Numbered from the stretch's first letter, positions 1-54,174 are shown. The stretch: 64,000 bases of DNA from Blastocatellia bacterium (GCA_036277095.1 DASUNP010000110.1:5444-69443); one strand, 5' to 3'. Translations and numbers: made by a program. The notes: a model not told the origin generated them from the sequence alone.

Positions 1-411
1 CAGGTGCCGCTGTTTCCGAGCCGGGCGATGGCGATGGTTTCGAGTCTCTTTGGATTGCTAGCGGTGGGGCTGACGGCGTTAGGACTTTACGGAATCCTCT
101 CTTACTCAGTCAGCCAGCGCAAGCGGGAAGTCGGCATACGAATGGCGCTGGGCGCGCAGGCGGCGGACATCTTCAAACTGATCATCCGGCAAGGGCTGAC
201 GATCACGCTGATCGGAATAGGCATCGGGCTGATCGGCTCGCTGGCGCTCACGCGCTTTTTGTCGAGCTTGCTGTTTGGCATCAGCCCGACCGACCCGTTG
301 ACGTTCGCCGTCATAGCCGTATCGCTGCTGGGAGTGGCTCTGGTGGCCTGTTTCGTGCCCGCGCGCCGCGCCACGAAAGTTGATCCGATGATAGCGCTCA
401 GGCACGAATGA
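1..411 (+). CDS. ADOP-type double-FtsX permease, C-terminal fragment (gene starts upstream of the window)
   Basis: Frame continuous from position 1. Ends with the family-typical second FtsX C-terminus ...[16 protein letters not shown]...[19 protein letters not shown] followed by a stop at 409-411. Same C-terminal architecture as the complete paralogs downstream. Confidence 0.85.
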
Positions 412-424
412 CAAAGGACAGATT

Positions 425-2854: not shown

Positions 2855-2897
2855 TTTCAAATTTGAAACTTCAAATCTCAAATTAATGGAGTGCCAG
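2855..2897 (+). repeat. AT-rich heptamer junction (TTTCAAA/TTTGAAA/CTTCAAA/TCTCAAA)
   Basis: tttcaaa|tttgaaa|cttcaaa|tctcaaa|ttaatgg. TTTCAAATTTGAAA is a perfect palindrome. Confidence 0.7.
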
Positions 2898-5414
2898 ATG
2901 GAGAGACTCTTACAAGATTTGCGGTATGGCGCGCGGATGTTAGTCAAGAGGCCCGGTTTCACGTTGATAGCCATCATCACGCTCGCACTCGGGATCGGGG
3001 CGAACACGGCGATCTTCAGCATGATAAACGCTACGTTGCTGCGCCAATTGCCTGTCGCCGAGCCAGAAGAGCTGCTCTTCGTATTTACGGGGAACCCCGG
3101 CGACCCATTCAACGTGTCGTCTTACCCGGATTACGTTGAACTGCGCGATCAGAATCAAGTCTTCATAGGGATGGCTTGCTCCGGCGGCATCACGGCCAGC
3201 CTCAACAGCGATGACCAGGCGCAGGCAGAGCCGATCTCAGGGTTGATCGTCTCGGGCAATTATTTCGAGTTGCTCGGCGTCAGGGCCGACGTTGGACGCA
3301 CCTTCGCGCCCGATGAAGATCAGACGCCGGGCGCGCGCGCCGTCGTCGTCATCAGCAACAGACTGTGGCAGTCGCGCTTTGACAGCAGGCCCGACATCAA
3401 CGGGCTTCAAATAAAATTGAACGGCCATAGCTTCACCATCATCGGAGTCGCCCCCGCAGGTTTCAACGGCACTGAAACGAATATTACCCGCGACATCTAC
3501 GTGCCGATGATGATGCAGGCCGTCGTGCGCCCGCCGCGCGGGGGCTATTCGGGCGAGATGAACCCCGACCTGCTCAAAGTGCGCGGCAATCGCTGGCTGC
3601 GCATGATCGCGCGACTAAAGCCCGGCCTGTCGCGAGACGAGGCGCAGGCCGAAATGGCCGTCATCACCAGCCAGCAGGCCGAGGCTTATCCGGATACCAA
3701 TAGAAACCGCATCGCCACGCTCACGCCGCTCTCGGAGGGCGATCCTCAACAGCGCGGACAATTAATCTCGGCCGCAGGGTTATCGCTTGGCGTCGTCGCA
3801 ATAGTGCTGTTGATAGCCTGCGCCAATGTGGCGAATCTTCTGCTCGCGCGCGCCTCATCGCGTCAAAAAGAGATAGCCGTGCGGCTCGCATTGGGCGCGA
3901 GCCGCTGGCGGTTGGTGCGACAGTTATTGACCGAAAGCGTATTGCTGGCCGTGTGCGGCGGTCTGATAGGCTCGCTTCTGGCCTGGTGGCTAATCGACAT
4001 CTGGAAGGCGAGCCCGCCCCCGCCCGGCGCGCTGCCGATCAACCCGGATTTCAATCTGGATGGGCGCGTGCTCTTATTCACCTTACTGCTTTCGCTGTTG
4101 ACGGGAATCGTCTTCGGCCTAGCGCCCGCGCTCGCGGCTTCTCGGCCCGACCTAGTGCGAGCCTTGAAAGATGACGCGCGCGCGTCGGACCCGCAACGCG
4201 CTCTCAACCTGCGCGGCGCGCTTGTGATAGCGCAGGTCGCATTGTCGCTGGTGCTGCTTATCAGCGGCGGGCTGTTTTTGCGCAGCCTTTGGCGCGCGCA
4301 ACAGATTGAGCCCGGCTTTGATGCCGAGAGGATTCTGACCGCGCCGCTTACGGTCAATCTCCTGCGTTACACGAGCGCGCAGGGGCGCGAGTTTTACCGC
4401 CAAGTAGTCGAGCGCGTCAGCGCGTTGCCGGGCGTGGAATCGGCAAGCCTTGCGCGCACGATCGCGCTCGGCGGCGGAAGCTCTGTGCGCGGTCTGCTGA
4501 TCGAGGGCCGCCAATCGCCCGACAATGATCTGCGTAGCGAGACGACAGCGGGCGGCACGGCGTTCGACAACCCGAACGTCATTAACGTGAACACAGTCGG
4601 CCTGAGCTATTTTCAGACCTTGGGCATAGGGCTGATGCGGGGTCGCGATTTTAATGAGCAAGACACAGCAGACAGGCCGGGCGTCGTTATCGTCAACGAG
4701 ACTTTCGTCAAGCGCCATTTCCCGGGCGAAGAGGTGCTGGGCAAGCGCCTGAGCATGCGCGGGCAGCGCGGCCCCTGGCTTGAGATTGTCGGCATCGTGC
4801 GCGACAGCAAATACGTGACGCTCGGCGAGCGCGCGATACCTTTCGCTTACTTGCCCCTTTCGCAAAATCACGAGACAGGCATGGTGCTGCACGTCCGAAC
4901 AAGCGGCGACCCTTCCAGCCTTGTGAGCGCAGTGCGAAGCGAGATTCAATCGCTCGACCGCAATCTGCCTGTTCCCGGCGTAGGCCCTATGACCGAATTG
5001 CTCACCGCATCGCTCTACCCGGCAAGGATGGGCGCGGTATTGCTGGGCGCGAGCGGTCTGCTGGCATTGCTGCTGGCGGCCGTAGGATTGTACGGCGTGA
5101 TGTCATTTTCAATAGCGCGCCGCACTCGCGAAATCGGCGTGAGGATGGCGCTCGGCGCGCAACACAGGGACGTGGTTCGGATGGTGCTGAAGGAGGGGAT
5201 GGCGCTTGTCGGCCTGGGCGTCGCGCTAGGGGTGCTCGGCGCAGTTGCCGCGACGCGCCTGCTGGCGAGCTATCTTTACGATGTCAGCACGCTCGACGTT
5301 ACGACGTTTGCAGCGATACCCGTGGGGCTGGCGGTCGTAGCATTGCTGGCCTGTTACATCCCCGCGCATCGGGCTACACGCGTAGACCCGATGGTCGCGC
5401 TCAGATACGAATGA
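2898..5414 (+). CDS. ADOP-type duplicated permease
   Basis: Same architecture (MERLLQDLRYGARMLVKRPGFT ... [31 protein letters not shown] ... RRTREIGVRMALGAQ ... [10 protein letters not shown]). ATG at 2898 preferred over in-frame 2886 because GGAG lies 6 nt upstream and it aligns with the paralog N-termini. Confidence 0.9.
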   Translation: MERLLQDLRYGARMLVKRPGFTLIAIITLALGIGANTAIFSMINATLLRQLPVAEPEELLFVFTGNPGDPFNVSSYPDYVELRDQNQVFIGMACSGGITASLNSDDQAQAEPISGLIVSGNYFELLGVRADVGRTFAPDEDQTPGARAVVVISNRLWQSRFDSRPDINGLQIKLNGHSFTIIGVAPAGFNGTETNITRDIYVPMMMQAVVRPPRGGYSGEMNPDLLKVRGNRWLRMIARLKPGLSRDEAQAEMAVITSQQAEAYPDTNRNRIATLTPLSEGDPQQRGQLISAAGLSLGVVAIVLLIACANVANLLLARASSRQKEIAVRLALGASRWRLVRQLLTESVLLAVCGGLIGSLLAWWLIDIWKASPPPPGALPINPDFNLDGRVLLFTLLLSLLTGIVFGLAPALAASRPDLVRALKDDARASDPQRALNLRGALVIAQVALSLVLLISGGLFLRSLWRAQQIEPGFDAERILTAPLTVNLLRYTSAQGREFYRQVVERVSALPGVESASLARTIALGGGSSVRGLLIEGRQSPDNDLRSETTAGGTAFDNPNVINVNTVGLSYFQTLGIGLMRGRDFNEQDTADRPGVVIVNETFVKRHFPGEEVLGKRLSMRGQRGPWLEIVGIVRDSKYVTLGERAIPFAYLPLSQNHETGMVLHVRTSGDPSSLVSAVRSEIQSLDRNLPVPGVGPMTELLTASLYPARMGAVLLGASGLLALLLAAVGLYGVMSFSIARRTREIGVRMALGAQHRDVVRMVLKEGMALVGLGVALGVLGAVAATRLLASYLYDVSTLDVTTFAAIPVGLAVVALLACYIPAHRATRVDPMVALRYE

Positions 5415-5555
5415 CAGGGGTCGGGGGTCAGGGGTCAGGGGTCAGGGAAGAGGTTATCTGAAATATCAAATTTGTATGGCGGATGATGCGCTTGCGCGCG
5501 CCGCGATTACAAATCCCTGATCCCTGGCCCCCGACCCCCGACCCCTGGAGAGATT
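5415..5555 (+). repeat. Type-A junction element: phased heptamer array (CAGGGGT)x5 - AT/GC core - (ATCCCTG/ACCCCCG/ACCCCTG)x5, forming a ~33-bp imperfect inverted repeat; G-quadruplex-capable G-run arm
   Basis: Read directly: caggggt|cgggggt|caggggt|caggggt|cagggaa ... atccctg|atccctg|gcccccg|acccccg|acccctg|gagagat|tATG. The 7-nt phase is kept across all 141 nt. The right arm contains the SD of the next gene. Confidence 0.8.
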
Positions 5556-7982
5556 ATGGACACACTCATACAAGATTTGCGATACGCGGTCCGTATGCTG
5601 ATCAAGAAACCTGCATTTACTGCCATCGCTATTATCACGCTCGCGCTCGGCGTCGGGGCGAATACGGCGATCTTTAGCGTGGTCAACTCTGTTCTGCTTG
5701 AGCCGCCTCCATACAATGAGCCAGACCGGCTGGTCTGGCTCTCTCATGAGGATTCGCTCACGCCCGCAGACTTTCTCGATTACCGCGAGCAGGCGCAGAC
5801 GTTCGAGCACATTGCCGCGTTCATAGGCTGGGGCGTCAACCTCACGGGCAAAAGTGAGCCCGAGCGTTTGGCGGGCGCGCTCGTCTCCCCGGGGTTCTTC
5901 TCCGTGCTCGGCGTGCCCGCGATGATCGGTCACACCTTCACACCAGAACAGGAGCAGGATGCTTCCGCCCGATTTGCGGTCTTGAGCCACGGGCTGTGGG
6001 AGCGCCGTTTCGGGGCTGACGCCGGTGTCGTCGGCAGCTCGCTTCTGCTCAACGGCGAGAGCTTCACAGTAGTCGGAGTCATGCCGCGCGATTTTCGACA
6101 CCCGAGCGGAAAGGCCGAAGTCTGGGGCTTGGCAAGGCGAGTTGTGCCGGAATTGCCTTTCCGCACTTCCGACGTTATGCAGAACCGTCATCTGCATTAC
6201 CTTCAAGTCATCGGGCGGTTGAAGCCCAATGTGGCGATCACCCAGGCCCAGGCGGAGGTCGATACGATAGCGCAACGGCTTGAGCAGCAATACCCGAACA
6301 CGAATAAGGATGAACGCCTCGCGCTCGTGACCGTTCAAGAGCACGTAGTCGGCGATCTGAAGCTGCCGCTTTTGATACTGCTCGGGGCCGTCGGGTTCGT
6401 GTTGTTGATCGCGTGCGCGAACGTCGCGAACCTGATGTTGGTGAGGGCGAGCGGGCGCCGCCGCGAGATAGCCATACGCACAGCCCTCGGGGCGCAGCGG
6501 GGGCGAATAATCCGGCAGCTTCTGACCGAGAGCATGTTGATGGCTCTCGTCGGCGGGGGCGTGGGGCTGTTGCTTGCGCTTTGGGGCACGGACCTGCTGA
6601 TCTCCGTCAGCCCCGGCGCTCTGCCTAGCTTGAGAGATATAAGCCTCGACTCTCGCGTGCTCGCCTTCACACTTCTCACGTCGCTTTTGACGGGAGCGAT
6701 CTTCGGCCTTGTCCCCGCGCTCCAGGCGTCAAAGCCCAACCTGAACGAATCGCTTAAGGAGGGGAGCCGCAGCGCGGGCGGAGCGGGCAGCGCGCGAGTT
6801 CGCAACTCGCTTGTCGTAATCGAGATAGCGCTGTCGCTCGTTCTGCTCGCGGGCGCGGGACTTCTGATAAACAGCTTCCTCAAGCTCGCAAACACCGACC
6901 CCGGCTTCAAGGCTGAAGGCGTGTTGACTATGCGGCTCAATCTTTCAGGCAGCAATTATCAAAAGCCCGAACAGCTAGCCGCGTTTTACACTCAACTGCT
7001 CGACAGAGTCGAGGCTCTGCCCGGGATCGAGCGTGTGGGAGCAATCGAAGTCGCCCCGGTATTTTCGCGCGGCGCTTTTTACAGCTTTATCATCGACGGG
7101 CAGCCCGCCCCGATGGGCGAGCAGCAACGCGATAACGCTTCGGGGTTTCACTCCGTAAGCCCCGATTATTTTAACGCGATGGGAACTCCCTTTTTGACGG
7201 GCCGCCAGTTCAACGAAGCCGACACGCGTGAATCCGCGCAGGTGGTGATTATCAACCAGGAGATGGCCGAGCGCTACTGGCCCGGCGAAAGCCCTATCGG
7301 CAAGCGCATCAGTTACGGGACCAACGCCGATAACCAGCCGTCGTGGGTAGAGATCGTGGGCGTAGTCGGAAACGTGCGCCACGTCGGGTTGGACACCGAT
7401 GTCGACCCCGAGGCTTACGTGCCTTACACGCAAGCGCCTTATCGCTATATGACAATTATGATCCGCACGGCGACCGATCCCGAAAGCGTTGTCGCGGCAG
7501 TGCGGAGCCAGGTGCAGGCCCTCGACCCGCAGCAGCCTGTTTATGATTTCAAACCCATGACAGAAGTGATCGCGGATTCGCTCGCCAAGCGGCGGCTGAG
7601 CATGTTGTTGATAGGCATATTCGCTGCGGTGGCGCTCTTGCTTGCCGCCGTAGGAATATATGGCGTGATGTCGTACGCCGTCACGGAGCGGACGCGCGAG
7701 ATAGGCATTCGCGTCGCGCTCGGCGCGCAGATGGGCGATGTCATGAGACTTGTCGTGGGGCAGGGAATGACGCTCGCGCTCATAGGCATTGGCGCGGGTC
7801 TGGTCGTGGCGTTCTTGCTGACGCGACTCATAGAGAGCTTGCTTTACAAAGTGAGCACAACAGACCCGGCAACCTTCGTCGCGATCACTCTATTGCTCTT
7901 TGCAGTTGCATTCGTGGCGAGTTACATCCCCGCGCGTCGAGCGATGAGAGTCGACCCGATGGTCGCGTTGCGTTACGAATGA
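5556..7982 (+). CDS. ADOP-type duplicated permease
   Basis: 808 aa. MDTLIQDLRYAVRMLIKKPAFT ... [31 protein letters not shown] ... [16 protein letters not shown] ... [18 protein letters not shown] upstream. Its 3-prime end overlaps the convergent STAND gene by 10 nt. Confidence 0.9.
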   Translation: MDTLIQDLRYAVRMLIKKPAFTAIAIITLALGVGANTAIFSVVNSVLLEPPPYNEPDRLVWLSHEDSLTPADFLDYREQAQTFEHIAAFIGWGVNLTGKSEPERLAGALVSPGFFSVLGVPAMIGHTFTPEQEQDASARFAVLSHGLWERRFGADAGVVGSSLLLNGESFTVVGVMPRDFRHPSGKAEVWGLARRVVPELPFRTSDVMQNRHLHYLQVIGRLKPNVAITQAQAEVDTIAQRLEQQYPNTNKDERLALVTVQEHVVGDLKLPLLILLGAVGFVLLIACANVANLMLVRASGRRREIAIRTALGAQRGRIIRQLLTESMLMALVGGGVGLLLALWGTDLLISVSPGALPSLRDISLDSRVLAFTLLTSLLTGAIFGLVPALQASKPNLNESLKEGSRSAGGAGSARVRNSLVVIEIALSLVLLAGAGLLINSFLKLANTDPGFKAEGVLTMRLNLSGSNYQKPEQLAAFYTQLLDRVEALPGIERVGAIEVAPVFSRGAFYSFIIDGQPAPMGEQQRDNASGFHSVSPDYFNAMGTPFLTGRQFNEADTRESAQVVIINQEMAERYWPGESPIGKRISYGTNADNQPSWVEIVGVVGNVRHVGLDTDVDPEAYVPYTQAPYRYMTIMIRTATDPESVVAAVRSQVQALDPQQPVYDFKPMTEVIADSLAKRRLSMLLIGIFAAVALLLAAVGIYGVMSYAVTERTREIGIRVALGAQMGDVMRLVVGQGMTLALIGIGAGLVVAFLLTRLIESLLYKVSTTDPATFVAITLLLFAVAFVASYIPARRAMRVDPMVALRYE

Positions 7983-11125: not shown

Positions 11126-11260
11126 CCTAAGCCTCACGCTATTGATCGAAAGTAATCTCAACCATACTAATCGAATTTCTCGAAGTGGCAAGGGCAAAGA
11201 ACGGCGGACGACAGAAGTCTTTATATTGGGAAACCATTTCCCAAAAGTGAACATCCGCCG

Positions 11261-11287
11261 GGCCGCCATTATTTGGCGGCCTTTTTC
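11261..11287 (+). terminator. Perfect 8-bp-stem palindrome GGCCGCCA-TTATT-TGGCGGCC followed by TTTTTCT (intrinsic-terminator-like on the + strand) in the divergent STAND/response-regulator intergenic region
   Basis: Read directly at 11261..11281 plus the T-tract. It overlaps the alternative upstream ATG (11269) of the STAND frame. Confidence 0.45.
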
Positions 11288-11327: not shown

Positions 11328-11344
11328 TGGCACGCGAATTGGCT
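11328..11344 (+). promoter_or_regulatory. Possible sigma-54-type -24/-12 promoter upstream of the REC-PP2C gene (TGGCACG-N4-TTGG; -12 GC replaced by GG)
   Basis: aaTGGCACGcgaaTTGGct lies 45-60 nt upstream of ATG 11389. One mismatch at the normally invariant -12 GC. Confidence 0.25.
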
Positions 11345-11388
11345 AATCATGCGAGGGTTAATTTCGGCAAGCAGTTTTGAGTTACATC

Positions 11389-15027: not shown

Positions 15028-15069
15028 TTTCAAATTTGAGATTTGAGATTTGAGATTGAGAGGGAACCT
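15028..15069 (+). repeat. AT-rich heptamer junction (TTTCAAA then TTTGAGA x3), 42 nt = 6 heptamers, merging into the SD
   Basis: tttcaaa|tttgaga|tttgaga|tttgaga|ttgagag|ggaacct ATG. Confidence 0.8.
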
Positions 15070-17544: not shown

Positions 17545-17620
17545 CATCGTCATTCGTCATTTGTCATTTGTCCTTCGCATTCTCTTCAAAGGACGAATGA
17601 CTAAGGACAAAGGACAGATT
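17545..17620 (+). repeat. Type-B junction element: (TCATTCG/TCATTTG/TCATTTG/TCCTTCG) arm and complementary (GACGAAT/GACTAAG/GACAAAG/GACAGAT) arm forming a hairpin whose right arm supplies the SD
   Basis: catcg|tcattcg|tcatttg|tcatttg|tccttcg|cattctc|ttcaaag|gacgaat|gactaag|gacaaag|gacagat|tATG. Short remnants GACAAAGGACA(G/A)ATTATG also occur at 411-427 and 22628-22643. Confidence 0.75.
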
Positions 17621-39044: not shown

Positions 39045-39115
39045 TAGGCGCGGCAGTTTCTAGTTTGAAGAGGCCGAACTAGAACTCATAAAACTGAAAC
39101 TTGCTCATCGGAGGA

Positions 39116-41566: not shown

Positions 41567-41608
41567 TTTCAAATTTCAGATTTGAGATTTGAAATTGAAA
41601 GGAAGTAT
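41567..41608 (+). repeat. AT-rich heptamer junction, 42 nt
   Basis: tttcaaa|tttcaga|tttgaga|tttgaaa|ttgaaag|gaagtat ATG. Confidence 0.75.
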
Positions 41609-44038: not shown

Positions 44039-44157
44039 CAGGGATCAGGTGCCAGGAGCCGGGGGCCAGGGATTCGTAATTTCAAATCTCAAATTTGATA
44101 TTTCAAATCCTTCTTTCCCCTGAACCCTGACCCCCGATCCCCGACCCCTGGAGAAAG
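44039..44157 (+). repeat. Type-A junction element (fourth, degenerate copy; 119 nt = 17 heptamers)
   Basis: cagggat|caggtgc|caggagc|cgggggc|cagggat|tcgtaat|ttcaaat|ctcaaat|ttgatat|ttcaaat|ccttctt|tcccctg|aaccctg|acccccg|atccccg|acccctg|gagaaag|ATG. Confidence 0.75.
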
Positions 44158-46638
44158 ATGATGGAGACCTTATTTCAAGACGTTCGTTACTGCTTTCGGG
44201 TGATGATGAAAAGCCCCGGCTTTACCGCCGTGACAATTCTCTCGCTGGCAATCGGCATCGGCGCAAACACTTCGATCTTCAGCGCGATCAACGCCGTGCT
44301 GTTGCGCCCGCTGCCGTTCAAAGACTCCGACCGTTTAATGACCGTCGACCGCACAACCCCCAGCGCAGTCAATCCGATCTCTCCGTGGTCTTATCCGAAG
44401 TTTGAAGCCCTGCGCGCGAACAACGAAGTCTTCGAAGAGGTCGCGGCCATAAGCAACCAGAGCTTTCCGCTCACAGAGACCGATACGCCCGAACGACTCC
44501 AGGTCGAGATGGTGTCGGCCAGCTATTTCTCCATGCTCGGCGTAGAGGCTTCACGTGGGCGCACGTTCACTCCCGAAGAAGACCAGACGCCCGGCACACA
44601 CCCGGTCATCGTAATCGGTCACGGGCTATGGGAGCGCCGCTTCGGGTCAGACCCTGGAGTGACGGGCCAGAGCGTGAGCCTTAACAAAGTTCGCTTTAAC
44701 GTCATAGGCGTGATGCCCGAAGGCTTCAAGGGGCAGTCGGGCACTGTAGAGGCGTGGGTTCCTATGATGATGGCCCCGCAGTTGACATTCCCGCGACGGC
44801 TGAAAGCGGCGGGCGCTCACTGGCACAACGTCGTCGCGCGGCTAAAGCCGGGCGTAAGCCTGGCTCAAGCGCAAGCCTCTATGGAAGTGCTGAACCCGAA
44901 GATAGCCGAAGCGAATCCCGGCCAGAACACCCCGGAGGCAATCAAAGTGGCGGGGCTGAGAGAGTCGAAGATCGACCCGGCCATCAGTAAATCGCTCTTA
45001 ATACTCTTTGCGGCGGTGGGCCTCGTGCTGCTAATAGCCTGCGCCAACATCGCCAACCTGCTGCTGGCGAAATCGGCGTCGCGGCAAAAGGAGATCGCCG
45101 TGCGGATCGCGCTCGGAGCGAGTCGCGCGCGATTGGTCCGCCAGCTTTTGACCGAGAGTGTGTTGCTGGCATTCATTGGCGGACTGGTCGGATTGCTGCT
45201 CGCGCTCTGGGGGATAGAGCTGCTGACCGCAATCAATCCTATGAGCGACCCTGCGGCGCGCGCCCGTTACAATCTCATGCGCGACTTTAACGTCTTCAGC
45301 ATTGACTCCAAGGTGCTTGCCTTCAACATTGCCGTCTCATTCGTCACGGGTCTGCTGTTCGGGCTTGTGCCCGCCTTACAGTCGGCGCGCAGAGATGTCA
45401 ACGAGGTGTTAAAGGAAGGCGGAGCCGGTTCAGCCGAAAAGTCCAGAAGGCTCGGCGGCCTGAACTTCCGCAACGCCTTCATAGTCGGCGAGGTCGCCGT
45501 GTCGCTCGTGCTGCTCGTGTCGGCGGGGCTTATGATAAAAAGCTTCGCGCGCTTGCAGGCGACCAGTATAGGCTTTGACCCGGAAGGCGTGCTGACGGCG
45601 AGGATCAGTCTTCCCGGTCGCGAGTATGAAGGGAAAGCCATAGGGTTTTTCGAGCAGCTCTTAGACCGCGCGAAAAATCTGCCCGGTGTCGAATCGGCTA
45701 GCGTCTCCATATCAACTCCGCTTTCCAACAATTCCAGCAAAGCCGCTATTAAGATTGAAGACCGCCCAGCAGCCGACGGCGATGAGCCGCCCACGGCGGG
45801 CTATCACGTTATAGGAGCAGAGCATTTCGAGACGCTGCGGATTCCGGTGCTGCGCGGAAGGTCGTTTACCGACCAGGACCGGAAAGGGACAAAGCGCGTC
45901 GCGATCATCAGCGACTCGATGGCCCGGCGGCTCTGGCCCGATGACGAGGCTCTAGGCAAGCGAATATGGCTCTCGATGGGATGGGAGAAGAACGACTTCG
46001 CCGAGATCGTCGGCGTCGTCGGCGACGTGAAGTATAGCAACGTCGAAGGGGCGGTGGAGCCTGATGTCTACATCCCCTACTTGCAGACTGTGGAAGAACC
46101 GCCATCGTTTGTCTTGATACGCGCGGCTGGTGACCCCGCCGCGCTCGTCGCCGGACTTCGCAGAGAAGTCTTCGCGCTCGATAAGAACGTGCCGGTCTAT
46201 GACGTTAAGACGCTTGAGGAGCGGAGCCGTGACGCGACTTCGCGAGCGCGCTTCATGGCGTTGCTTCTAGGCGCATTCGCGTGCGTCGCGCTGTTGCTTT
46301 CGAGCATAGGGATCTACGGCGTGATGGCCTCTGCGGTAGCCGGGCGCACGCGCGAGATAGGAATTCGCATGGCGCTGGGCGCGCAAAAAGCGGATGTGCT
46401 GAGACTCATCCTAAGCGACGGCATCATTTTAACAATCGCGGGGATAGCCCTGGGGCTTATGGCTTCGCTGGCCGTCACGCGCTTTCTGACGAGCCTGCTT
46501 TACGGCGTAGGCGCGGCGGACCCTGTGACGTTCGCGATCGTCTCCGCGATACTCGCGGCGGTCGCCATGACGGCGAGCTACATCCCCGCGCGTCGCGCGA
46601 CAAAAGTCGACCCGATGGTCGCGCTAAGGCATGAGTAA
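44158..46638 (+). CDS. ADOP-type duplicated permease
   Basis: 826 aa. MMETLFQDVRYCFRVMMKSPGFT ... [31 protein letters not shown] ... [16 protein letters not shown] ... [20 protein letters not shown] upstream. Confidence 0.9.
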   Translation: MMETLFQDVRYCFRVMMKSPGFTAVTILSLAIGIGANTSIFSAINAVLLRPLPFKDSDRLMTVDRTTPSAVNPISPWSYPKFEALRANNEVFEEVAAISNQSFPLTETDTPERLQVEMVSASYFSMLGVEASRGRTFTPEEDQTPGTHPVIVIGHGLWERRFGSDPGVTGQSVSLNKVRFNVIGVMPEGFKGQSGTVEAWVPMMMAPQLTFPRRLKAAGAHWHNVVARLKPGVSLAQAQASMEVLNPKIAEANPGQNTPEAIKVAGLRESKIDPAISKSLLILFAAVGLVLLIACANIANLLLAKSASRQKEIAVRIALGASRARLVRQLLTESVLLAFIGGLVGLLLALWGIELLTAINPMSDPAARARYNLMRDFNVFSIDSKVLAFNIAVSFVTGLLFGLVPALQSARRDVNEVLKEGGAGSAEKSRRLGGLNFRNAFIVGEVAVSLVLLVSAGLMIKSFARLQATSIGFDPEGVLTARISLPGREYEGKAIGFFEQLLDRAKNLPGVESASVSISTPLSNNSSKAAIKIEDRPAADGDEPPTAGYHVIGAEHFETLRIPVLRGRSFTDQDRKGTKRVAIISDSMARRLWPDDEALGKRIWLSMGWEKNDFAEIVGVVGDVKYSNVEGAVEPDVYIPYLQTVEEPPSFVLIRAAGDPAALVAGLRREVFALDKNVPVYDVKTLEERSRDATSRARFMALLLGAFACVALLLSSIGIYGVMASAVAGRTREIGIRMALGAQKADVLRLILSDGIILTIAGIALGLMASLAVTRFLTSLLYGVGAADPVTFAIVSAILAAVAMTASYIPARRATKVDPMVALRHE

Positions 46639-46640: not shown

Positions 46641-48122
46641 ATGGATAGACCATTAGCAGTCCCGCGAAATACTTATCGCATTCGCCTCAGGCGGACCATT
46701 CTCATTGGCGTGGGGATTCTCGCCCTTGTCGTAGCCATCGGCTCGATCCCCATAGCCTTCGTCTATTTCATGAGCGAGCCGGTTGTCCCTTCGCCTTTGC
46801 TCTTGTCCGAAGGCGTACTGTCTGAAAGCTCGCCGCAATCGATCAAGCCCATTCAGACGAAACCGCAGCGCCTCGTCGCCTTCGTCAACGTGAACGTCGT
46901 GCCTATGGACACGGAGCGCGTCATCGCGGGCCAGACCGTCATCGTCAAAGATGGTCTCATAGCTGAAATAGGGCCGACCGCAAAGGTCAAAGTCCCCGCG
47001 TCGGCCCTGCGCGTAGACGGGAGCGGCAAGTACCTGATGCCGGGCCTCGCAGACATGCATGTCCACCTTACCGTCCCGCGCGAGGACGTGCTCGCGCTTT
47101 TTCAGCTCTTTATCGCAAACGGCGTGACGACTATCTTAAACTTGCGCGGCACGCCCGAGCATCTTGAGCTTCGCGCGAGCGTCGCGAAGGGCGAAGTATT
47201 CGGCCCGACGCTCTACACGGCGGGCTCTTATGTGAACGAGCCGTTCGTCAACACGCCCGACGAAGTCGAGCGCGCCGTCATAGAGCAGAAACGCGCGGGC
47301 TACGACTTCATAAAGATGCACGGCGATCTATCAAGGGAAGCCTACGCCAGGCTCTTTGCAGTCGCGCGGCGCGAAGGCATTCGCGTGGTCGGGCACGCGC
47401 CCAGGACTTTAGGCATCGAAGCGATGTTTGAAGAGCGGCAGTACGCCGTTGTTCATGCGGAAGAATATATTTACGACCGGAACCACAGCTCAAGAGACTT
47501 TGCCGCAATCGAGCCTCGCATTCCTGAGCTTGGGCAAGCGACCGCGAAGGCTGGCATCTGGTTCATGCCGAACCTGACCGCGTTTAAGAACATCGGGTTG
47601 CAGGCCAACGACCTCCAGGCGATCTTAGACAGGACGGAGATGCGCTTTATGCCGCCGCGCATACGCGATGGCTGGGGGCCGGCTACCAACCCTTACACGC
47701 GCAGGTTCGGCAAAGATCAATATCCTAAAATCATGGCGCGATACCAGTTGCTTGAAAAAATTGTCCGTGGCTTTCGCGCGGCGGGCGTGCGAATGCTCAT
47801 AGGGACCGACGCGCTCAACACGGCGGTCGTGCCGGGATTCTCTATGCACGACGAGCTTAATGATCTGGTCGTGGCGGGGCTTACGCCTTACGAGGCGCTG
47901 AGGGCCGCGACCGCAAACGCTGCGGAATTCTTAGGCACAGCCGACCGTGTAGGAACAGTTACAACAGGCAAGCGGGCCGATCTGTTACTGCTGGAAGCCG
48001 ACCCGCTCAAAGATGTGAAGAACGCGAACCGCCGCGCGGGGGTGATGTTTCGCGGCCAGTGGATGACGGAAGCCGATCTTCGCAAGATGCTCGATGATCT
48101 GGTCGCATCTTATTCAAGGTGA
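46641..48122 (+). CDS. Membrane-anchored metal-dependent amidohydrolase-family protein
   Basis: Starts 2 nt after the permease stop (TAATTATG), consistent with translational coupling. N-terminal TM helix ILIGVGILALVVAIGSIPIAFVYF. Amidohydrolase hallmarks GLADMHVHL (HxH metal site), MLIGTDA, TTGKRADLLLLEADPL near the C-terminus. Confidence 0.8.
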   Translation: MDRPLAVPRNTYRIRLRRTILIGVGILALVVAIGSIPIAFVYFMSEPVVPSPLLLSEGVLSESSPQSIKPIQTKPQRLVAFVNVNVVPMDTERVIAGQTVIVKDGLIAEIGPTAKVKVPASALRVDGSGKYLMPGLADMHVHLTVPREDVLALFQLFIANGVTTILNLRGTPEHLELRASVAKGEVFGPTLYTAGSYVNEPFVNTPDEVERAVIEQKRAGYDFIKMHGDLSREAYARLFAVARREGIRVVGHAPRTLGIEAMFEERQYAVVHAEEYIYDRNHSSRDFAAIEPRIPELGQATAKAGIWFMPNLTAFKNIGLQANDLQAILDRTEMRFMPPRIRDGWGPATNPYTRRFGKDQYPKIMARYQLLEKIVRGFRAAGVRMLIGTDALNTAVVPGFSMHDELNDLVVAGLTPYEALRAATANAAEFLGTADRVGTVTTGKRADLLLLEADPLKDVKNANRRAGVMFRGQWMTEADLRKMLDDLVASYSR

Positions 48123-48146
48123 ATATGCTTATAGGTTTGAGATATT

Positions 48147-48255
48147 TCACCGCCGCAGACACAGAGCACACAGAGTTTACGCAGAGCAGAATTATGTTCT
48201 CTCTATACGTTTTCTCTGCGCCCGCTCTGTGTTCTCTGCGTCTCTGCGGTGAATT
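48147..48255. repeat. REP/MITE-like dispersed hairpin repeat, copy 1 (CACCGCCGCAGACACAGAGCACACAGAG ... CTCTGTGTTCTCTGCGTCTCTGCGGTGAAT)
   Basis: Long imperfect inverted repeat immediately after the amidohydrolase stop. It shares a ~30-nt near-identical core (CTCTGTGTyCTCTGCGTCTCTGCGGTGAATyCT) with the copy at 63686..63771. Confidence 0.6.
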
Positions 48256-48342: not shown

Positions 48343-49179
48343 ATGAAACTCTATTTCAAGCCATTACTCACCCTAGCGACAATCGTTCTGCCTTTCTGCC
48401 TGACGGCGGCGGCGCAGAGCAAGGATTTTAAGAAGACGGTCGATCTTGAACAGGGAGGCAGTTTATCACTGTCAACAGACAAGGGCAGCGTCCGGCTCAG
48501 CTCGTGGAGCCAGAACCAGGTCGAGATCGTCGCCCGCATAGACCCGCCCGATGAAGTGAGTCCGGACTACGCACGCCGCGCGATTGAAGGCGTCGTGATC
48601 GAAGTCCTTGGCGGGGGCCGCTCGCTGACCATCCGCTCGAATTTCGAGGGCGTCCCGTACCGAGAAGATTTCGGCGGCCGTTCGAGAACGCTTCCCAACG
48701 TTCATTATGAGATACGCGCGCCTCGCAGCCTCAAGCTCAACGTCGATATAGACAGGTCCAGAGTCGACCTTAATGGGTTTGAAGGCAGCATAGAAATACA
48801 CTCCGACCGAACCCCCGTGACGGCTACCGACATTGCGGGCGACATACGGCTGCGGATGGATAGGGGCGAGCTCACGCTCTCGAAGGTCAGAGGGGCGCTC
48901 AACGTCGACACCGACCGGACGGACATCAATTTGCAGGGCGTTCGCTTCGAAGGCGATTCTCGATTCGACATGGATCGCGGCGAGCTGGACATAAAGCTTG
49001 CCGAGAGCCAGGGCCTCTCTATACAGACCGACCTTTCGCGGAGGGGCGATTTTACTACAGACCTTCAGATAAGCATGCAGAACATGCGCGGCAAGAATTT
49101 TGACGGGACCATAAACGGCGGCGGCCCTCGCGTGGTCTTTAGAACCGACAGGGGCCGCATACGATTGAGGCGCGAATAG
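48343..49179 (+). CDS. Secreted beta-repeat protein, DUF4097-like (putative adhesin / LiaG-YvlB-like fold)
   Basis: Signal peptide MKLYFKPLLTLATIVLPFCLTAAAQS. Repeated strand motifs GDIRLRMDRGELTL / GALNVDTDRTDINL / GDSRFDMDRGELDIKL, typical of DUF4097 beta-helical repeats. SD GGAGGAAAG upstream. Confidence 0.6.
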   Translation: MKLYFKPLLTLATIVLPFCLTAAAQSKDFKKTVDLEQGGSLSLSTDKGSVRLSSWSQNQVEIVARIDPPDEVSPDYARRAIEGVVIEVLGGGRSLTIRSNFEGVPYREDFGGRSRTLPNVHYEIRAPRSLKLNVDIDRSRVDLNGFEGSIEIHSDRTPVTATDIAGDIRLRMDRGELTLSKVRGALNVDTDRTDINLQGVRFEGDSRFDMDRGELDIKLAESQGLSIQTDLSRRGDFTTDLQISMQNMRGKNFDGTINGGGPRVVFRTDRGRIRLRRE

Positions 49180-49278
49180 AGTCAGTTGTCAGTTGTCCGT
49201 TGTCCGCGGTCAGTCGTGGGAGCGGCCTTCGTAAGCGCGAGCAACTGACTGCGGACAACTGATTAAGGACAACTGAAT
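49180..49278 (+). repeat. Type-C junction hairpin built from (CAGTTGT) and complementary (ACAACTG) heptamers
   Basis: gtcagttgtcagttgtccgttgtccgcggtcagtcg ... gcaactgactgcggacaactgattaaggacaactga. Imperfect ~35-bp inverted repeat between the DUF4097-like gene and the next permease. Confidence 0.65.
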
Positions 49279-51723
49279 ATGAATGACATTCGTCTCAGCC
49301 TTCGCTCTCTTTTCAAGAGGCCCGGCTTCACCGTTGTCGCCGTCCTGACTCTAGCTTTAGGGATCGGCGCTAACTCTACGATCTTCACTCTCGTTAACGC
49401 AGTCCTGCTACGGCCTCTCCCCGTCGAAGAACCCGACCGGGTCGTAAGCGTCTACGCGACCTCGCCCGACGGCGCTCGCTCCTCGCGCTTTTCGTATCTC
49501 GATTATGTCGATTACCGCGACCGGAACGAGGTGCTGGCGGGGCTTGCGGCTCAGAACTTGACCCCCATCACTCTCGGCGTCGCCGAAGGCGCGGAGCCCA
49601 TACTCGGACAGATAGTCTCGGGAAACTACTTCACGGTCCTGGGCGTCGGCGCGCGTCTCGGAAGGGTCTTCACAGCGGAAGAAGACCGACAAGGCAGTGA
49701 GCGCGTCGCGGTCGTCTCTCACAGCTTCCACCAGCGCCGCTTCCCCGCAGAGCCCGACGTGACGGGTAAGATTATTTACTTGAACGGCGATGCGTTCACC
49801 GTCATCGGCATCATCGAAAAAGATTTCACGGGAACGAGCATAGGGCCGTTCATTGACGTCTGGGTACCGATGATGCAGACCGGAAACTGGATGGGGCCCG
49901 ACTGGATGGGGAACCGCGCGCGGGCACAGCTCCAGATGATCGGCCGCCTCAAGCCCGATGTTTCGCGCGACGAGGCGCAGGCGAATATGAGCACGCTCGC
50001 CGCACAGCTCGCACAGGAGTACAAGGAACCGGGCCGCGCCGACGGCGTAGAGCTTACGCAATCATCGCTCATAGAAGGGCGTCGCCGCACGGCGGTAGCG
50101 GCGTTCTTTGCGATACTTCTCGCAGTAGTCGGGCTCGTCTTGTTGATCGCCTGCGCGAACGTGGCGAACCTGTTGTTAGTTCGCGCGCTCTCGCGCAGGC
50201 GCGAGATGGCGATAAAGCTGGCGTTAGGCGCGGGGCGCTTCAGGCTCATGCGGCAGTTCATGACCGAAAGCCTTTTGCTCGCGCTCGCGGGCGGCGGCGC
50301 CGGATTGTTAATATCTCTGTGGGCAGGCAACCTCCTGCACAATTTCAACCCGCTTCCTTCCTTTCCCATTCAATTCGACCTTTCGGCGGACGCCCGCGTG
50401 ATCGCGTTCGTCTTCGCCGCCTCGCTCGTGACGGGGGTTGCGCTCGGCATTATTCCCGCGCTGCGCGGCACGCGGCCCGATCTGCTCGCGACTTTAAAAG
50501 ACGAAACCAGCTCTGTCGGAAGCGGCTCAAGCAAGTCGCGCCTGCGCAACGTGTTCGTCGTGGCCCAGATATCGCTTTCGCTCGTTCTGCTGATCGGCGC
50601 GACGCTTTTGGTCCGCAGCCTCCAGAACTCGCAAGCAATCGATCCGGGCTTCAGGCCGGAAAACGCCTTTGCCATGGATTTCGACCTCGACCTGAAAGGC
50701 TTTTCCGAAGAGAAGGGAAGAGAGTTTTACGCGCGTATGATCGAGCGCGTCTCCGCAGTGCCCGGCGTCGAGGCGGCTGCGATTGCCGACCGCGCGCCGC
50801 TCGACATCTCGACCACGACGACAGGCGTTCTCATCGAAGGCTATGAGCCTCCTGCGGGAAAGACTGCCATCCCCATTTCGGCTTACACCGTTGGACCGGG
50901 ATATTTCGGGACTACGGCCATACCGTTGGTCGGCGGGCGAGATTTCACAGTGCGGGATGACAAAGACGCGCCGCAGGTCGTCATCATCAATCAACAGATG
51001 GCGCTCAGGTATTGGCCCAACGAAAACCCTATAGGAAAGCGGTTCCGCCTCGCCGCGCAATCGGCCCAGAAGCTGCCGGAAATGATCGTAGAAGTGATAG
51101 GCGTGGCGCGCGACTCCAAATACCGGACGCTTTCTGAAGAAGCGACTCCGCACGTCTACCTGCCGTTTCTACAGAGCTACAAACCCGGGATGACTCTGAT
51201 AGTGCGCGTGGCGGGCGACACACGGCAGATGATGAGGACTGTCCGCGCAGAGTTGCAACGGCTGGACAAAGACCCGCAGGCATTCTTTCCCCGAACCATG
51301 TTCGAGCACATGGCCGTAGTGCTCGCGCCGGGTCAGATAGCCGCCACTCTCTTTGCTATCTTCGGGCTGCTCGCGCTCGCGCTTGCCGTCGTAGGCATCT
51401 ACGCCGTGATGGCTTATTCAGTCACGGAGCGCACGCGCGAGATAGGCATTCGCATGGCGTTAGGCGCGAAGCCCTCCGACGTTTTCAAGCTCGTAGTTGG
51501 AAAAGGTCTGATCTTATCGGCGATCGGCACGATTATAGGGCTTGCGGCTGCCTTTGCGCTGACACGATTCTTAGCGGGCCTGCTGGTCGGGGTGAGCGCG
51601 ACCGACCCCGCGACATTTGCGGCGATCCCCGCGCTGTTCACTCTCGTCGCGCTTCTAGCGAGTTACCTGCCTGCGCGCCGCGCGATGCGCGTCGATCCGC
51701 TGGCGGCGCTCAAACATGAATAA
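49279..51723 (+). CDS. ADOP-type duplicated permease (divergent N-terminus)
   Basis: MNDIRLSLRSLFKRPGFT ... [31 protein letters not shown] ... [16 protein letters not shown] ... VDPLAALKHE. Confidence 0.88.
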   Translation: MNDIRLSLRSLFKRPGFTVVAVLTLALGIGANSTIFTLVNAVLLRPLPVEEPDRVVSVYATSPDGARSSRFSYLDYVDYRDRNEVLAGLAAQNLTPITLGVAEGAEPILGQIVSGNYFTVLGVGARLGRVFTAEEDRQGSERVAVVSHSFHQRRFPAEPDVTGKIIYLNGDAFTVIGIIEKDFTGTSIGPFIDVWVPMMQTGNWMGPDWMGNRARAQLQMIGRLKPDVSRDEAQANMSTLAAQLAQEYKEPGRADGVELTQSSLIEGRRRTAVAAFFAILLAVVGLVLLIACANVANLLLVRALSRRREMAIKLALGAGRFRLMRQFMTESLLLALAGGGAGLLISLWAGNLLHNFNPLPSFPIQFDLSADARVIAFVFAASLVTGVALGIIPALRGTRPDLLATLKDETSSVGSGSSKSRLRNVFVVAQISLSLVLLIGATLLVRSLQNSQAIDPGFRPENAFAMDFDLDLKGFSEEKGREFYARMIERVSAVPGVEAAAIADRAPLDISTTTTGVLIEGYEPPAGKTAIPISAYTVGPGYFGTTAIPLVGGRDFTVRDDKDAPQVVIINQQMALRYWPNENPIGKRFRLAAQSAQKLPEMIVEVIGVARDSKYRTLSEEATPHVYLPFLQSYKPGMTLIVRVAGDTRQMMRTVRAELQRLDKDPQAFFPRTMFEHMAVVLAPGQIAATLFAIFGLLALALAVVGIYAVMAYSVTERTREIGIRMALGAKPSDVFKLVVGKGLILSAIGTIIGLAAAFALTRFLAGLLVGVSATDPATFAAIPALFTLVALLASYLPARRAMRVDPLAALKHE

Positions 51724-51744
51724 TCATCGATTGAGGGGTAAGCA

Positions 51745-54174
51745 ATGGAAAGTATTCTCAAAGACATTCGCTACAGTTTAAGGATGCTATTGAAGAATCC
51801 CGGCTTTACGCTGGTTGCGATTCTGACGCTCGCTTTAGGCGTGGGAGCGAATACGGCCATCTTCAGCATAGTCGATGCCGTGTTATTGAACCCATTCCCT
51901 TACCGCGACCACTCGCGGCTTATGATAATCAGGCAGAGCCTCCCGAAGATCGGAGTGCAAGAGCAGATGCGCGCTTCAAGCCCCGAGGTCGGAGAGCTAC
52001 GCGACCGGACAACCGTATTCGAGAACATGGCTGCGTGGGAGCCCGTTAGCCGGAACCTGACCGGCGGCCAGGAGCCTGAGCGAATAGCCGCCGCTAAAGT
52101 CTCCGCCGATCTCTTCCCGGCGCTCGGAATCGAGCCTCTTATGGGTCGCGCAATAACGGCCGGGGACCAGGGGCCTAAAGGCGAGCGCGTGCTGGTCCTA
52201 AGTCATGGCTTGTGGCAGCGGCGCTTCGGCGGCGAAGACATGCTCGGGCAGAAGGTGGCCCTGGATGATGAGCCTTACACGGTCGTCGGAGTGATGCCGC
52301 CACAGTTCAGGTTTGAAGGCGCGGAAGCCTGGTTTCCCTTCCCGTTCGTGATGGGCGAAGGGCCTCGCTCGGGCCGGAGCTTTATGGTCATGGGCAGGCT
52401 GAAGCCCGGGGTCGACATCGAACAGGCTAACGCCGAGCTTGAGGTGATCGCGCGCCGCCAGGAGCAAGAGCTTGGAGCCAACGCTCCGGAATACGTGGAG
52501 CGAAAGATAACGCTGGTCCCGCTCTTGAATTATACGCTTGGCTCCGTGCGGACCGCGCTGCTGGTTCTGCTTGGCGCGGTCGCGATGGTGCTTTTGATTG
52601 CGTGCGCGAACATCGCAAACCTGCTGCTCGCCCGCGCGGTCTCGCGCGAGCGGGAGATTGCCATTCGTCAGGCGTTGGGCGCAAATCGCTCTCGCATCAT
52701 CCGGCAGATGCTAACGGAGAGCGGCGTGCTGGCGCTGCTGGGCGGAGGACTGGGCCTGCTGCTCGCCGTCTGGAGCCTCGACGCGCTCGTTGCTCTCGTC
52801 CCGGTGGGAACCATCCCGCAAGGAATCGAGTTGAGCATAGACTCGCGCGTGCTCATCTTCACGCTGGCGGTATCGCTCGCGACCGCGCTCGTCTTCGGGC
52901 TGTGGCCCGCGCTTCAAGCATCAAAAGTAAACTTGAACGAGTCGTTGAAAGAGGGCAGCCAGAAGACGACAGTGGGTTACCGAAACCGCCGCGCGCAAAG
53001 CTTGCTCGTCGTCACGGAGGTAGGGCTTTCGCTGTTGCTGCTGATTATGGCAGGACTGATGCTGAGAAGCTTCGCGCGATTGACTCAGATCGATCCCGGT
53101 TTCGACCCTGAAAATGTCGTCTCCATGCGGATCAATCTCCCCCCGGCCAGGTACGCTCAAGAGGGAAGGATGGCCGCTTTCTTCCAGCAGCTCATTGAGC
53201 GAGTTGAGACCGTTCCGGGAGTCGAGGCGGCGGCTGTCGCTTCGCACATGCCATTCGTCTACACAGAGGATTGGACCTTCACAGTAGAAGGGGCGGCCAG
53301 TGAAGAGACTGCCCAAACGCAGAACCTCGACACTCGGACCGTAAGTCCCGGCTACTTCCGCGCCATGCGAATACCCATGCTCAGGGGCGAGACTTTTTCA
53401 CCGCAAGATGCGGCGGGCGCTCCCGGCGTGATTATCATTAACCAGACGATGGCTCGCCGCTTCTGGCCGGATCAGGAGGCCATCGGGAAGCGAGTCAAGC
53501 TGGGCCGCGCCGATTCAAATAATCCTTGGCTGACCGTGCGCGCAGTAGTCCAGGACTCAGCTCAAGGCAGCCTGGACGTCGCGACAAAGCCTGAAGTCTA
53601 TTTCCCGCTCGCGCAGATGGCGGGGCGATACCGCAGGATGAATCTTGCGGTGCGCTCGACGGCGGGCGACCCCTTGAGCCTGATCGGCCAATTACAGGCA
53701 GAGGTGCGCGGCATCGATAAAGACCAGCCCGTCTACCAGATTCAAACTATGGAGAGCCTTATCGGCGATTCGGTCGGAACCCGCCGCTTCGCTATGACTC
53801 TGCTCGGGTTGTTCGCCGGGCTTGCTCTGTTGCTCGCGGCAATAGGGATTTATGGCGTGATGTCGTATGCGGTCACCGAGCGCACGCATGAGATAGGAAT
53901 CCGCGTGGCTCTCGGGGCCGGGCAGAAAGAGGTGTTAAAGCTCATAGTAGGTCAGGGCATGGTATTCATCTTATCGGGTTTGGTCATAGGGTTGATCGGA
54001 GCCTATATCGCTACGAGCCTGCTCTCGAACCTGCTTTACGACGTAAGCGCGCGCGACCCCATCACTTTCGCCGTGGTTACAATCGTTCTAACCTTGATAG
54101 CGCTTGTGGCCTGCTACATCCCCGCACGGCGGGCAATGAGAGTCGATCCCATAGTCGCGCTCAGGTATGAATAG
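51745..54174 (+). CDS. ADOP-type duplicated permease (last of the array)
   Basis: [22 protein letters not shown] ... [31 protein letters not shown] ... [16 protein letters not shown] ... [18 protein letters not shown] upstream. Followed by a hairpin. Confidence 0.9.

Follow-up and report, generated by a model that had tools for sequence, protein, structure and literature searches.

We have analysed a 64,000-nt window of DNA from Blastocatellia bacterium (GCA_036277095.1 DASUNP010000110.1:5444-69443; coordinates given without a locus label are positions in this window) which carries, from 1 to 54174 on the + strand, an array of 19 genes for ADOP-type double-FtsX permeases, numbered here G01 to G19. 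The explanation that best accounts for the array overall, and which we hold to be probable although well short of certain, is that the ADOP proteins are ABC (ATP-binding cassette) machines of type VII whose ATPases are shared and encoded in trans. This shared-motor mechanism is derived from homology and from gene neighbourhoods in relatives, not from the window itself. The presence of 19 such paralogues, as claimed in an original prediction made from the sequence of this window, is confirmed, all copies including the truncated G01 matching TIGR03434 ('ADOP family duplicated permease') at E <= 1e-10. Bit scores, given for five of the 19 copies, are 1016.6 (G02), 1017.3 (G05), 978 (G12), 914.5 (G18) and 1042.5 (G11), extending over profile positions 1-803 or 3-803, with the curated NCBIfam cut-off set at 622.3 bits. 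The ADOP family and its clustering are already known, and the array is a large example, not a new family.

Architecture and coupling helices of the permeases

The family assignment originally proposed is correct, as judged by TIGR03434 and the Pfam layout, and the duplicated architecture with eight transmembrane (TM) segments is likewise borne out. Two MacB_PCD and two FtsX domains are detected by Pfam in each of the four copies scanned, eight hydrophobic TM segments are apparent in the hydrophobicity profile of the 18-copy alignment, and an AlphaFold2 model of G11 agrees with this layout. Each half of the protein comprises one TM helix, a periplasmic domain and three further TM helices, the periplasmic loops of ∼230 residues each connecting TM1 to TM2 and TM5 to TM6, and the halves are joined by a cytoplasmic linker of ∼30 residues. 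The G11 model, for which a 19-row alignment was the input, has a mean predicted local distance difference test (pLDDT) score of 82.9 and a predicted template modelling (pTM) score of 0.73. When compared with the PDB using Foldseek, the model matched first E. coli YbbP (9ge6, 9ge7) and then MacB (5gko, 5lil, 5nik), with further matches to the pneumococcal MacB-like permease 5xu1, BceB and LolC/E, and also to the isolated MacB periplasmic domain 3ftj. As modelled, the periplasmic domains are of the MacB Porter/Sabre type and are located between the first two TM helices of each half.

At 15 of 16 positions, the G11 loop between TM6 and TM7 has the same residue as the TM2-TM3 segment of E. coli MacB, ERTREIGIRMA-GA being shared. 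In MacB this segment is the major coupling helix contacting the nucleotide-binding domain (NBD), the C-terminal helix being the minor one (PMC5985334), and in YbbP two coupling helices bind two YbbA ATPases (PMC12646458). The two coupling helices, like the C-terminal helix, rank with the best-conserved parts of the ADOP proteins in all 18 complete copies. Across these copies the coupling helix of half 1 (RxKEIAIRxALGASRxR) and that of half 2 are each fixed, and the two differ from one another by fixed substitutions, A against G and R against D. Conservation of the coupling and C-terminal helices to this degree is hard to explain without a cytoplasmic partner. The membrane and juxtamembrane motifs quoted in the original prediction match the alignment consensus, although their description as near-invariant was too strong, only 25 columns being invariant.

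ATPase genes in related arrays

The permeases had been described as orphans with no cognate ATPase gene, and in terms of adjacency this holds, as no ABC_tran gene is present within 1-54174 and no HlyD-family gene in the 64-kb window. It does not hold further, as the coupling helices are kept and most related arrays are headed by adaptor and ATPase genes. The comparison set consisted of 297 long ADOP open reading frames (ORFs) from 80 related loci (labelled L and a number), mostly of Acidobacteriota, chiefly Blastocatellia and Pyrinomonadaceae. A co-directional module recurs in related loci, consisting of an HlyD-family adaptor (∼420-450 aa), ATPase A1 and often ATPase A2, which is 49% identical to A1, followed often by a gene for a response regulator (RR)-PP2C phosphatase fusion and then by ADOP genes. 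The adaptor is the first gene in 11 of 15 arrays of related Blastocatellia having at least three copies and a visible 5' end, and an ATPase (A1 with or without A2) is located within 3.5 kb upstream in 10 of these 15; L035 instead has both ATPases after its first permease. Headed arrays contain one adaptor and one or two ATPases per 3-7 or more permeases, and the window copies have the coupling-helix and C-terminal consensus common to the ADOPs of these headed arrays. Combined, the headed arrays in relatives and the intact docking helices suggest that 'orphan' describes gene adjacency, not ATPase independence. In L083 and L084, with orthologues 83-87% identical, the array head adjoins a divergent kinase/regulator pair on the other strand, comprising a histidine kinase (Reg_prop/Y_Y_Y/HisKA_3, ∼1030 aa) and a regulator of the Response_reg-GerE type.

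Organisation of the array

Eighteen of the ADOP genes are complete (806-842 codons) and one is truncated at the 5' end. Six non-ADOP genes are embedded in the array, five on the + strand and one, the 1098-aa NACHT gene at 7973-11269, on the - strand, such that the original statement that all genes are on one strand is incorrect. The gaps of 13-141 nt reported originally apply to ADOP-to-ADOP junctions, whereas junctions beside the embedded genes measure 2-220 nt. Starts consistent with the family lie downstream of several longest-ORF starts, at ∼17621, 25172, 15070, 30117 and 41609. The features are as follows, with the supporting evidence in parentheses.

1-408, +: G01, 3' end of an ADOP gene, 136 codons, cut by the window start (frame-1 translation; TIGR03434)
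425-2854, +: G02, ADOP permease, 809 aa (TIGR03434; MacB_PCD x2, FtsX x2)
2886-5414, +: G03, ADOP permease, likely start 2898 (TIGR03434; L008 orthologue 80% identical)
5556-7982, +: G04, ADOP permease, closes the upstream unit (TIGR03434; L008 orthologue 76% identical)
7973-11269, -: PNP_UDP_1 nucleosidase + NACHT NTPase + TPR gene, 1098 aa (Pfam, NCBIfam, PADLOC)
11328-11344, +: sigma54-like -24/-12 motif TGGCACGCGAATTGGCT (conservation and position)
11377-12561, +: RR receiver-SpoIIE/PP2C phosphatase fusion, heads the G05-G19 run (Pfam)
12595-15027, +: G05, ADOP permease (TIGR03434; L008 orthologue 82% identical)
15043-17544, +: G06, ADOP permease, likely start 15070 (TIGR03434; in the 18-copy alignment)
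17510-20038, +: G07, ADOP permease, likely start 17621 after a hairpin (TIGR03434)
20171-22627, +: G08, ADOP permease (TIGR03434)
22641-25061, +: G09, ADOP permease (TIGR03434)
25133-27607, +: G10, ADOP permease, likely start 25172 (TIGR03434)
27649-30075, +: G11, ADOP permease, copy chosen for modelling (TIGR03434; AlphaFold2 model)
30072-32540, +: G12, ADOP permease, likely start 30117 (TIGR03434)
32563-33699, +: secreted repeat protein, 378 aa, signal peptide, SSDYEKA-type repeats (no known family)
33720-36161, +: G13, ADOP permease, likely start 33774 (TIGR03434)
36175-36552, +: small secreted protein, 125 aa, signal peptide (sequence)
36600-39044, +: G14, ADOP permease (TIGR03434)
39101-41566, +: G15, ADOP permease (TIGR03434; 63-65% full-length relatives in other genomes)
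41582-44038, +: G16, ADOP permease, likely start 41609 (TIGR03434)
44158-46638, +: G17, ADOP permease (TIGR03434)
46641-48122, +: amidohydrolase with N-terminal membrane anchor (Amidohydro_1 match)
48343-49179, +: DUF4097 'toastrack' protein, signal peptide (Pfam DUF4097, weak LiaG match)
49279-51723, +: G18, ADOP permease (TIGR03434)
51745-54174, +: G19, ADOP permease, final array gene (TIGR03434)
57907-58602, -: ABC ATPase, MacB/LolD-class, outside the array (family matches)
58599-59849, -: single-FtsX permease (4-nt overlap with the 57907-58602 ATPase)

The closest DNA is locus L008 of an independently assembled Blastocatellia metagenome-assembled genome (MAG), which is syntenic with the window at 77-80% nucleotide identity. 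G02 and G03 stand in the opposite order in L008 (425-5414 versus L008 5840-10828), where the orthologue of G02 is 81% identical and broken into two ORFs, and copies past G05 are not orthologous. Thus, array content turns over between genomes at ∼78% nucleotide identity. Swapped C-terminal tails between paralogues, suggested by a long BLASTN match over gene borders, were rejected, as per-segment protein identity indicated that each L081 gene tail matches its own orthologue. In L081, which is on the same contig as L008, at least nine ADOP genes are present upstream of the NACHT orthologue compared with four in the window, and L086 is similar. The window therefore does not contain the whole array, and on this comparison of gene order the array in this lineage is longer than 19 copies. 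ADOP genes split into two ORFs are found in MAG relatives (L008 8395-10828; L086 4836-7275 and 15106-17536; L087 1-4383) and may be pseudogenes or assembly frameshift errors.

Divergence and selection among paralogues

Whole-protein identity between copies ranges from 38 to 55% with a mean of 45%, and neighbouring copies resemble each other no more closely than distant ones do (44.7% versus 44.8%). Conservation is distributed unevenly along the protein, mean pairwise identity being 73% for TM1, 67% for TM2 and the first coupling helix, 62% for TM6 and the second coupling helix, 56% for TM7-TM8 and the C-terminus, and only 37% and 35% for the first and second periplasmic domains (PCD1 and PCD2), within which most low-occupancy (indel) columns are also located. 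When pooled, membrane and cytoplasmic segments are 59% identical and periplasmic segments 36%, the membrane value being the higher in all 153 pairs. The original contrast between divergent periplasmic domains and conserved TM blocks is thus upheld by per-domain alignment, in which the periplasmic domains are clearly not as conserved as the TM blocks. Nucleotide repeats between copies are 60-88% identical and restricted to conserved blocks. In G07-G10, the first 180 nt together with partial leaders (17620-17799, 20170-20349, 22640-22819 and 25171-25350) share 82-88% DNA identity, well above that of the rest of these genes, making local gene conversion of these 5' ends possible on sequence grounds.

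The identities of 38-55% among the copies imply that the array is neither an assembly artefact nor the product of recent amplification. Of the 19 copies, 18 have at least one foreign protein in the 297-ORF set that outscores their best paralogue in the window; G15, G02, G03, G05, G10, G12 and G13 have relatives elsewhere that are 62-65% identical, compared with 43-53% within the window. The paralogue lineages are thus older than the divergence of these genomes. The ratio of nonsynonymous to synonymous substitution rates (dN/dS) among window paralogues was set aside since synonymous sites are saturated at 38-55% protein identity, and three window-L008 orthologue pairs (G03, G04 and G05; 76-82% identity) were therefore analysed by the Nei-Gojobori method. 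The values obtained were 0.15 for PCD1, 0.19 for PCD2 and 0.08-0.13 for the membrane blocks, figures which are approximate as dS is 0.7-1.2, and orthologous periplasmic domains are 71-82% identical. Purifying selection on the periplasmic domains fits stable, distinct specificities and not an ongoing arms race. The diversified recognition repertoire envisaged originally is consistent with the old lineages of 18 of the 19 copies and with the periplasmic dN/dS values of 0.15-0.19; the antimicrobials, toxins or envelope components proposed alongside it would be candidate substrates.

Regulation and intercistronic elements

The G05-G19 run is preceded by the motif TGGCACGCGAATTGGCT, which begins at 11328, 32 nt upstream of the RR-PP2C ORF. 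Within a ∼33-nt block around the motif a single base differs in L008 whereas the flanks diverge. In L001, L025, L040, L073 and L074 the pattern TGGCACG-N4-TTGGCT recurs <100 nt upstream of an RR-PP2C gene, a DUF4097 gene or the ADOP gene that comes first following a gap; with that of L008 included, the sites are L008 16583, L025 8720, L001 9970, L040 4704, L073 9884 and L074 91 and 10444. In its sequence, TGGCACGCGAATTGGCT is similar to a -24/-12 promoter of the sigma54 type whose -12 element is clade-specific. In 17 loci, genes for NtrC-type activators (Response_reg + Sigma54_activat + HTH_8) are located at array 3' ends. Scans for sigma70 promoters and intrinsic terminators in the window returned counts equal to the shuffled expectation. 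Long polycistronic units, as originally suggested, are plausible to the extent that one conserved promoter-like motif, and no terminators above chance, are found in the 43-kb run. We infer two transcription units, one ending at G04 facing the NACHT gene and the other extending from 11328 through G19 to a hairpin at 54179-54244. This hairpin, built of heptamer repeats and located between the convergent G19 and Uma2 genes, has a fold energy of -33.9 kcal/mol (z -8.1) and marks the array end.

Two types of intercistronic element are present in the array. Hairpins of the (CAGGGGT)n type, detected in a tandem-repeat scan, occur at 5415-5547, 20039-20162, 25062-25161 and 44039-44150, with fold energies of -95, -79, -59 and -41 kcal/mol, respectively, and hairpins composed of other heptamers at 17547-17616 (-29 kcal/mol) and 49181-49276 (-53 kcal/mol). 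Their arms consist of 3-5 tandem heptamers (CAGGGGT, GTCAGTT, TTTGTCC) facing their own reverse complements, and they finish 5-12 nt ahead of the next start codon; the G-rich arms fit a G-quadruplex pattern. Fold z-scores range from -5 to -9, except for -1.9 at the degenerate 44039-44150 element. The same design with different heptamers is found in other Blastocatellia loci and in one Gemmatimonadota locus, and not just beside ADOP genes. An Rfam scan of the window returned no match, placing the hairpins outside curated RNA families; intergenic heptamer repeats, including convergent pairs, have been described in Xanthomonas and Nostoc (PMC4692102). A further hairpin, at 48146-48254, separates the amidohydrolase gene from the DUF4097 gene; it contains short CGCAGAGA/TCTCTGCG repeats (48233-48248), which are also present outside the array close to the end of the window (63689-63763).

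The other element, the AT-rich palindrome ATTTCAAATTTGARAT, is found at eight junctions (2854-2883, 5456, 15027, 25095, 27607, 30081, 41566 and 44079) in copies of ∼16-30 nt which follow the stop codon and precede the ribosome-binding site. Matches number 41 compared with 0.47 expected, all inside ADOP-ADOP junctions. It also occurs at junctions in L008, L081 and L083 but is present in only 5 of the first 80 loci. By its sequence and placement, ATTTCAAATTTGARAT could serve in RNA processing or RNA stability, or act as an operator.

Embedded and neighbouring genes

The original prediction that periplasmic enzymes and secreted proteins are embedded in the array is correct for the four products with a signal peptide or N-terminal anchor, but not for the RR-PP2C fusion (11377-12561), which is cytoplasmic. 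RR-PP2C is 50% identical to the product of an L007 gene standing after an adaptor-ATPase-ATPase module and before ADOP genes. Its receiver (11377-11820) is 62% identical to that of the NtrC-type activator at related array ends (L041 13215-14681), a likeness hinting that one kinase feeds both outputs.

The 378-aa repeat protein, which has no Pfam or NCBIfam match, has homologues inside the ADOP arrays of four or more other genomes (L056 15658-16887, L013 6143-7345, L045 14974-16062 and L023 13554-14561) and, to judge from sequence and position, is a possible periplasmic partner. A homologue of the 125-aa protein is encoded in L001 directly 3' of an ADOP gene. The amidohydrolase gene begins 2 nt past G17, an N-terminal TM segment is visible in its sequence, and its product is a candidate periplasmic partner enzyme. 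The DUF4097 match, at 22.6 bits, is slightly below the 22.9-bit cut-off, and a homologue adjoins the array in L074.

The NACHT gene overlaps the end of G04 by 10 nt, has a lower GC content of 0.53-0.56 and gives effector-type matches in PADLOC. It is a STAND/NLR-like gene, probably with a role in defence. Its C-terminal 635 aa are 79% identical in L008, where the N-terminal part is replaced or disrupted and an Mrr_cat ORF lies upstream; L086 retains PNP_UDP_1. Such differences among relatives look like effector-domain turnover in a defence gene.

No PadR-family regulator is encoded in the gaps of >150 nt within 1-54244, all of which are filled by the six embedded genes. A PadR neighbour belongs to the description of the sister model TIGR03433 and is not a strict criterion. 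The regulators flanking the array are Crp-like and HTH_3 (region 54914-56278), past a Uma2-family putative endonuclease gene (54245-54853, -) which is convergent with G19 and has a weak PADLOC PDC-S03 match. A PMT_2 glycosyltransferase gene adjoins the ATPase/permease pair at 57907-59849.

Discussion

By analogy with solved relatives, the ADOP proteins would act as type VII ABC machines by mechanotransmission. An ABC ATPase dimer would dock on the two coupling helices, and ATP binding would close the stalk helices and both periplasmic domains, a closure by which substrate may be extracted or expelled, from the periplasm or from the inner membrane's outer leaflet, with no carriage across the membrane. 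The ATPases, and probably also an HlyD-type adaptor, would be encoded in trans and be common to many permease paralogues, each paralogue contributing a different periplasmic specificity, and some paralogues may act together with the embedded periplasmic proteins. Expression would occur from at least two long units, with the intercistronic palindromes possibly modulating the G05-G19 unit. A bolder version, 'one motor, many heads', is offered tentatively and we consider it rather doubtful in its entirety. In it, one HlyD adaptor and an A1/A2 heterodimer would serve dozens of interchangeable, substrate-tuned permeases expressed from sigma54 super-operons, the heptamer palindromes would set the output of each paralogue, and the half-1/half-2 helix differences would constitute a docking code for A1 and A2.

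A number of observations weigh against shared ATPases encoded in trans. No array-type ATPase or adaptor gene was found in the 64-kb window, and an upstream ATPase is present in only 3 of 18 loci with one or two ADOP copies; some members of the family may work without a dedicated ATPase. At the L083/L084 array head neither adaptor nor ATPase was found and, as these heads have no adaptor-ATPase module, the partners of this lineage, if any, would be encoded elsewhere. The assignment of one ATPase pair to many permeases derives from gene ratios only, and no experimental characterisation of any ADOP protein was found in the literature searched. With respect to regulation, the -12 element TTGGCT is not the canonical TTGC/TTGCW, and a scan of the window for canonical TGGCAC-N5-TTGC returned two one-mismatch matches compared with 4.3 expected, which is not significant; with the motif count at chance, the case for sigma54 rests on conservation and position.

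The same absences could be taken to indicate that the permeases are true orphans which use no ABC ATPase and function as passive periplasmic binding or scaffold proteins, as sensors signalling to the two-component systems nearby or with some other energy source. The window without an array-type ATPase, the histidine kinase and regulator in place of an ATPase at the L083/L084 head and the lack of a nearby ATPase at most one- or two-copy loci are all in line with this, as are the naming of the family for ATPase absence (PMC3914696) and the fact that BceB-type relatives sense together with a kinase (PMC5985334). However, true orphans would not be expected to have a coupling helix identical to that of MacB at 13 of 14 residues or to conserve both helices and the C-terminal helix in 18 copies, most multi-copy arrays in relatives begin with ATPase genes, and every solved relative works with an NBD dimer, and we therefore consider this explanation unlikely. 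It is more improbable still that the motor is local, the array sharing the MacB/LolD-class ATPase encoded at 57907-58602. This protein, 3.7 kb downstream of the array, is the sole type VII-class NBD in the window and scores 213 bits with the MacB model and 208 with the LolD and DarD models. Its gene, however, is on the opposite strand, separated from the array by four unrelated genes, and overlaps by 4 nt its own single-FtsX permease, which has a differing coupling motif. Its candidacy as an A1 or A2 orthologue was rejected, as it is 35-44% identical to both types and no closer to either.

Two further alternatives concern the origin of the array and not its motor. In one, fast diversifying selection or gene conversion of the periplasmic domains would reflect an arms race with a recent and rapidly changing expansion, like that of contingency or immunity loci, as might be read from the divergence and indels concentrated in these domains, from gene content and order which differ from the closest relative past G05 and in the G02/G03 swap, and from the 82-88% nucleotide identity of the G07-G10 5' ends. 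This does not fit orthologous periplasmic domains that are 71-82% identical with dN/dS of 0.15-0.19, paralogues that are 38-55% identical with neighbours no closer to each other than remote copies are, the better matches that 18 of 19 copies have in other genomes, or the negative test for swapped C-terminal tails, and we give it little credence. In the other, the array would be an assembly error or a very recent amplification. Only the repetitive look of the region favours this, and it is already refuted for practical purposes, as no two copies exceed 55% protein identity, the nucleotide repeats of 60-88% identity are confined to conserved blocks, and MAGs assembled independently contain the same genes, their order differing only by the G02/G03 swap.

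The array can be compared with several known systems. In 2014 a cluster of 42 kb, comprising ten ADOP paralogues whose protein abundance was high, was published for Psychroflexus torquis (PMC3914696). As in the array, it comprises many clustered paralogues on one strand, mostly without an adjoining ATPase gene, and it also contains non-transporter genes and other transporter genes with ATP-binding regions (PMC3914696). The present array, from another phylum, has about twice as many copies in a single run (19, and others past the edge of the window) and is further set apart by its RR-PP2C gene, its sigma54-like promoter, its intercistronic heptamer palindromes and the NACHT gene inserted in it.

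Among structurally characterised systems, E. coli YbbAP-TesA (PDB 9ge6-9ge8) resembles ADOP in that a single chain mimics a dimer with two Porter/Sabre domains and two coupling helices. YbbP, which has 10 TM helices, works by mechanotransmission with the periplasmic partner enzyme TesA (PMC12646458), a part that the embedded amidohydrolase or secreted proteins might play for the ADOP array. In YbbP the halves are linked by the pair TM5-6, whereas ADOP has eight TM helices, which indicates that ADOP is a different, direct fusion; ADOP copies score 22-24 bits with the YbbP family model NF041854, for which the cut-off is 999. In addition, ybbP is a single gene adjoined by ybbA, in contrast to an array with no adjacent ATPase. 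In MacAB-TolC, the MacB membrane and periplasmic part aligns with each ADOP half and has the same major coupling helix, and a MacA-like HlyD-family adaptor heads related ADOP arrays. MacB differs in being a homodimer with a fused NBD while ADOP is a fused pseudo-heterodimer with no NBD, and the window contains no gene for an adaptor or an outer-membrane factor. LolCDE follows a similar logic, with two differing FtsX-type halves (LolC, LolE), a common LolD2 dimer and a lipidic substrate in the outer leaflet, but consists of separate chains forming one essential system per genome, whereas ADOP has dozens of paralogues; LolC and LolE models score ADOP copies far below their cut-offs. BceAB shares with ADOP a double-FtsX permease linked to a histidine kinase and response regulator, as at the L083/L084 head. 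BceB, however, has 10 TM helices and one large extracellular domain with bceA adjoining bceB, and the L083/L084 kinase has a large Reg_prop/Y_Y_Y sensor domain, unlike the intramembrane-sensing BceS.

ADOP ranks with the largest uncharacterised families of transporter-like proteins in Acidobacteriota, a phylum dominant in soil, with tens of copies per genome. The window and its relatives turn the 'orphan' puzzle into testable statements concerning docking helices, array-head ATPases, conserved periplasmic domains and a sigma54/RR module. If true, the operation of many permeases on one motor would be an unusual ABC organisation, and the shared motor would provide a way to understand envelope defence or the extraction of lipids and proteins in soil bacteria.

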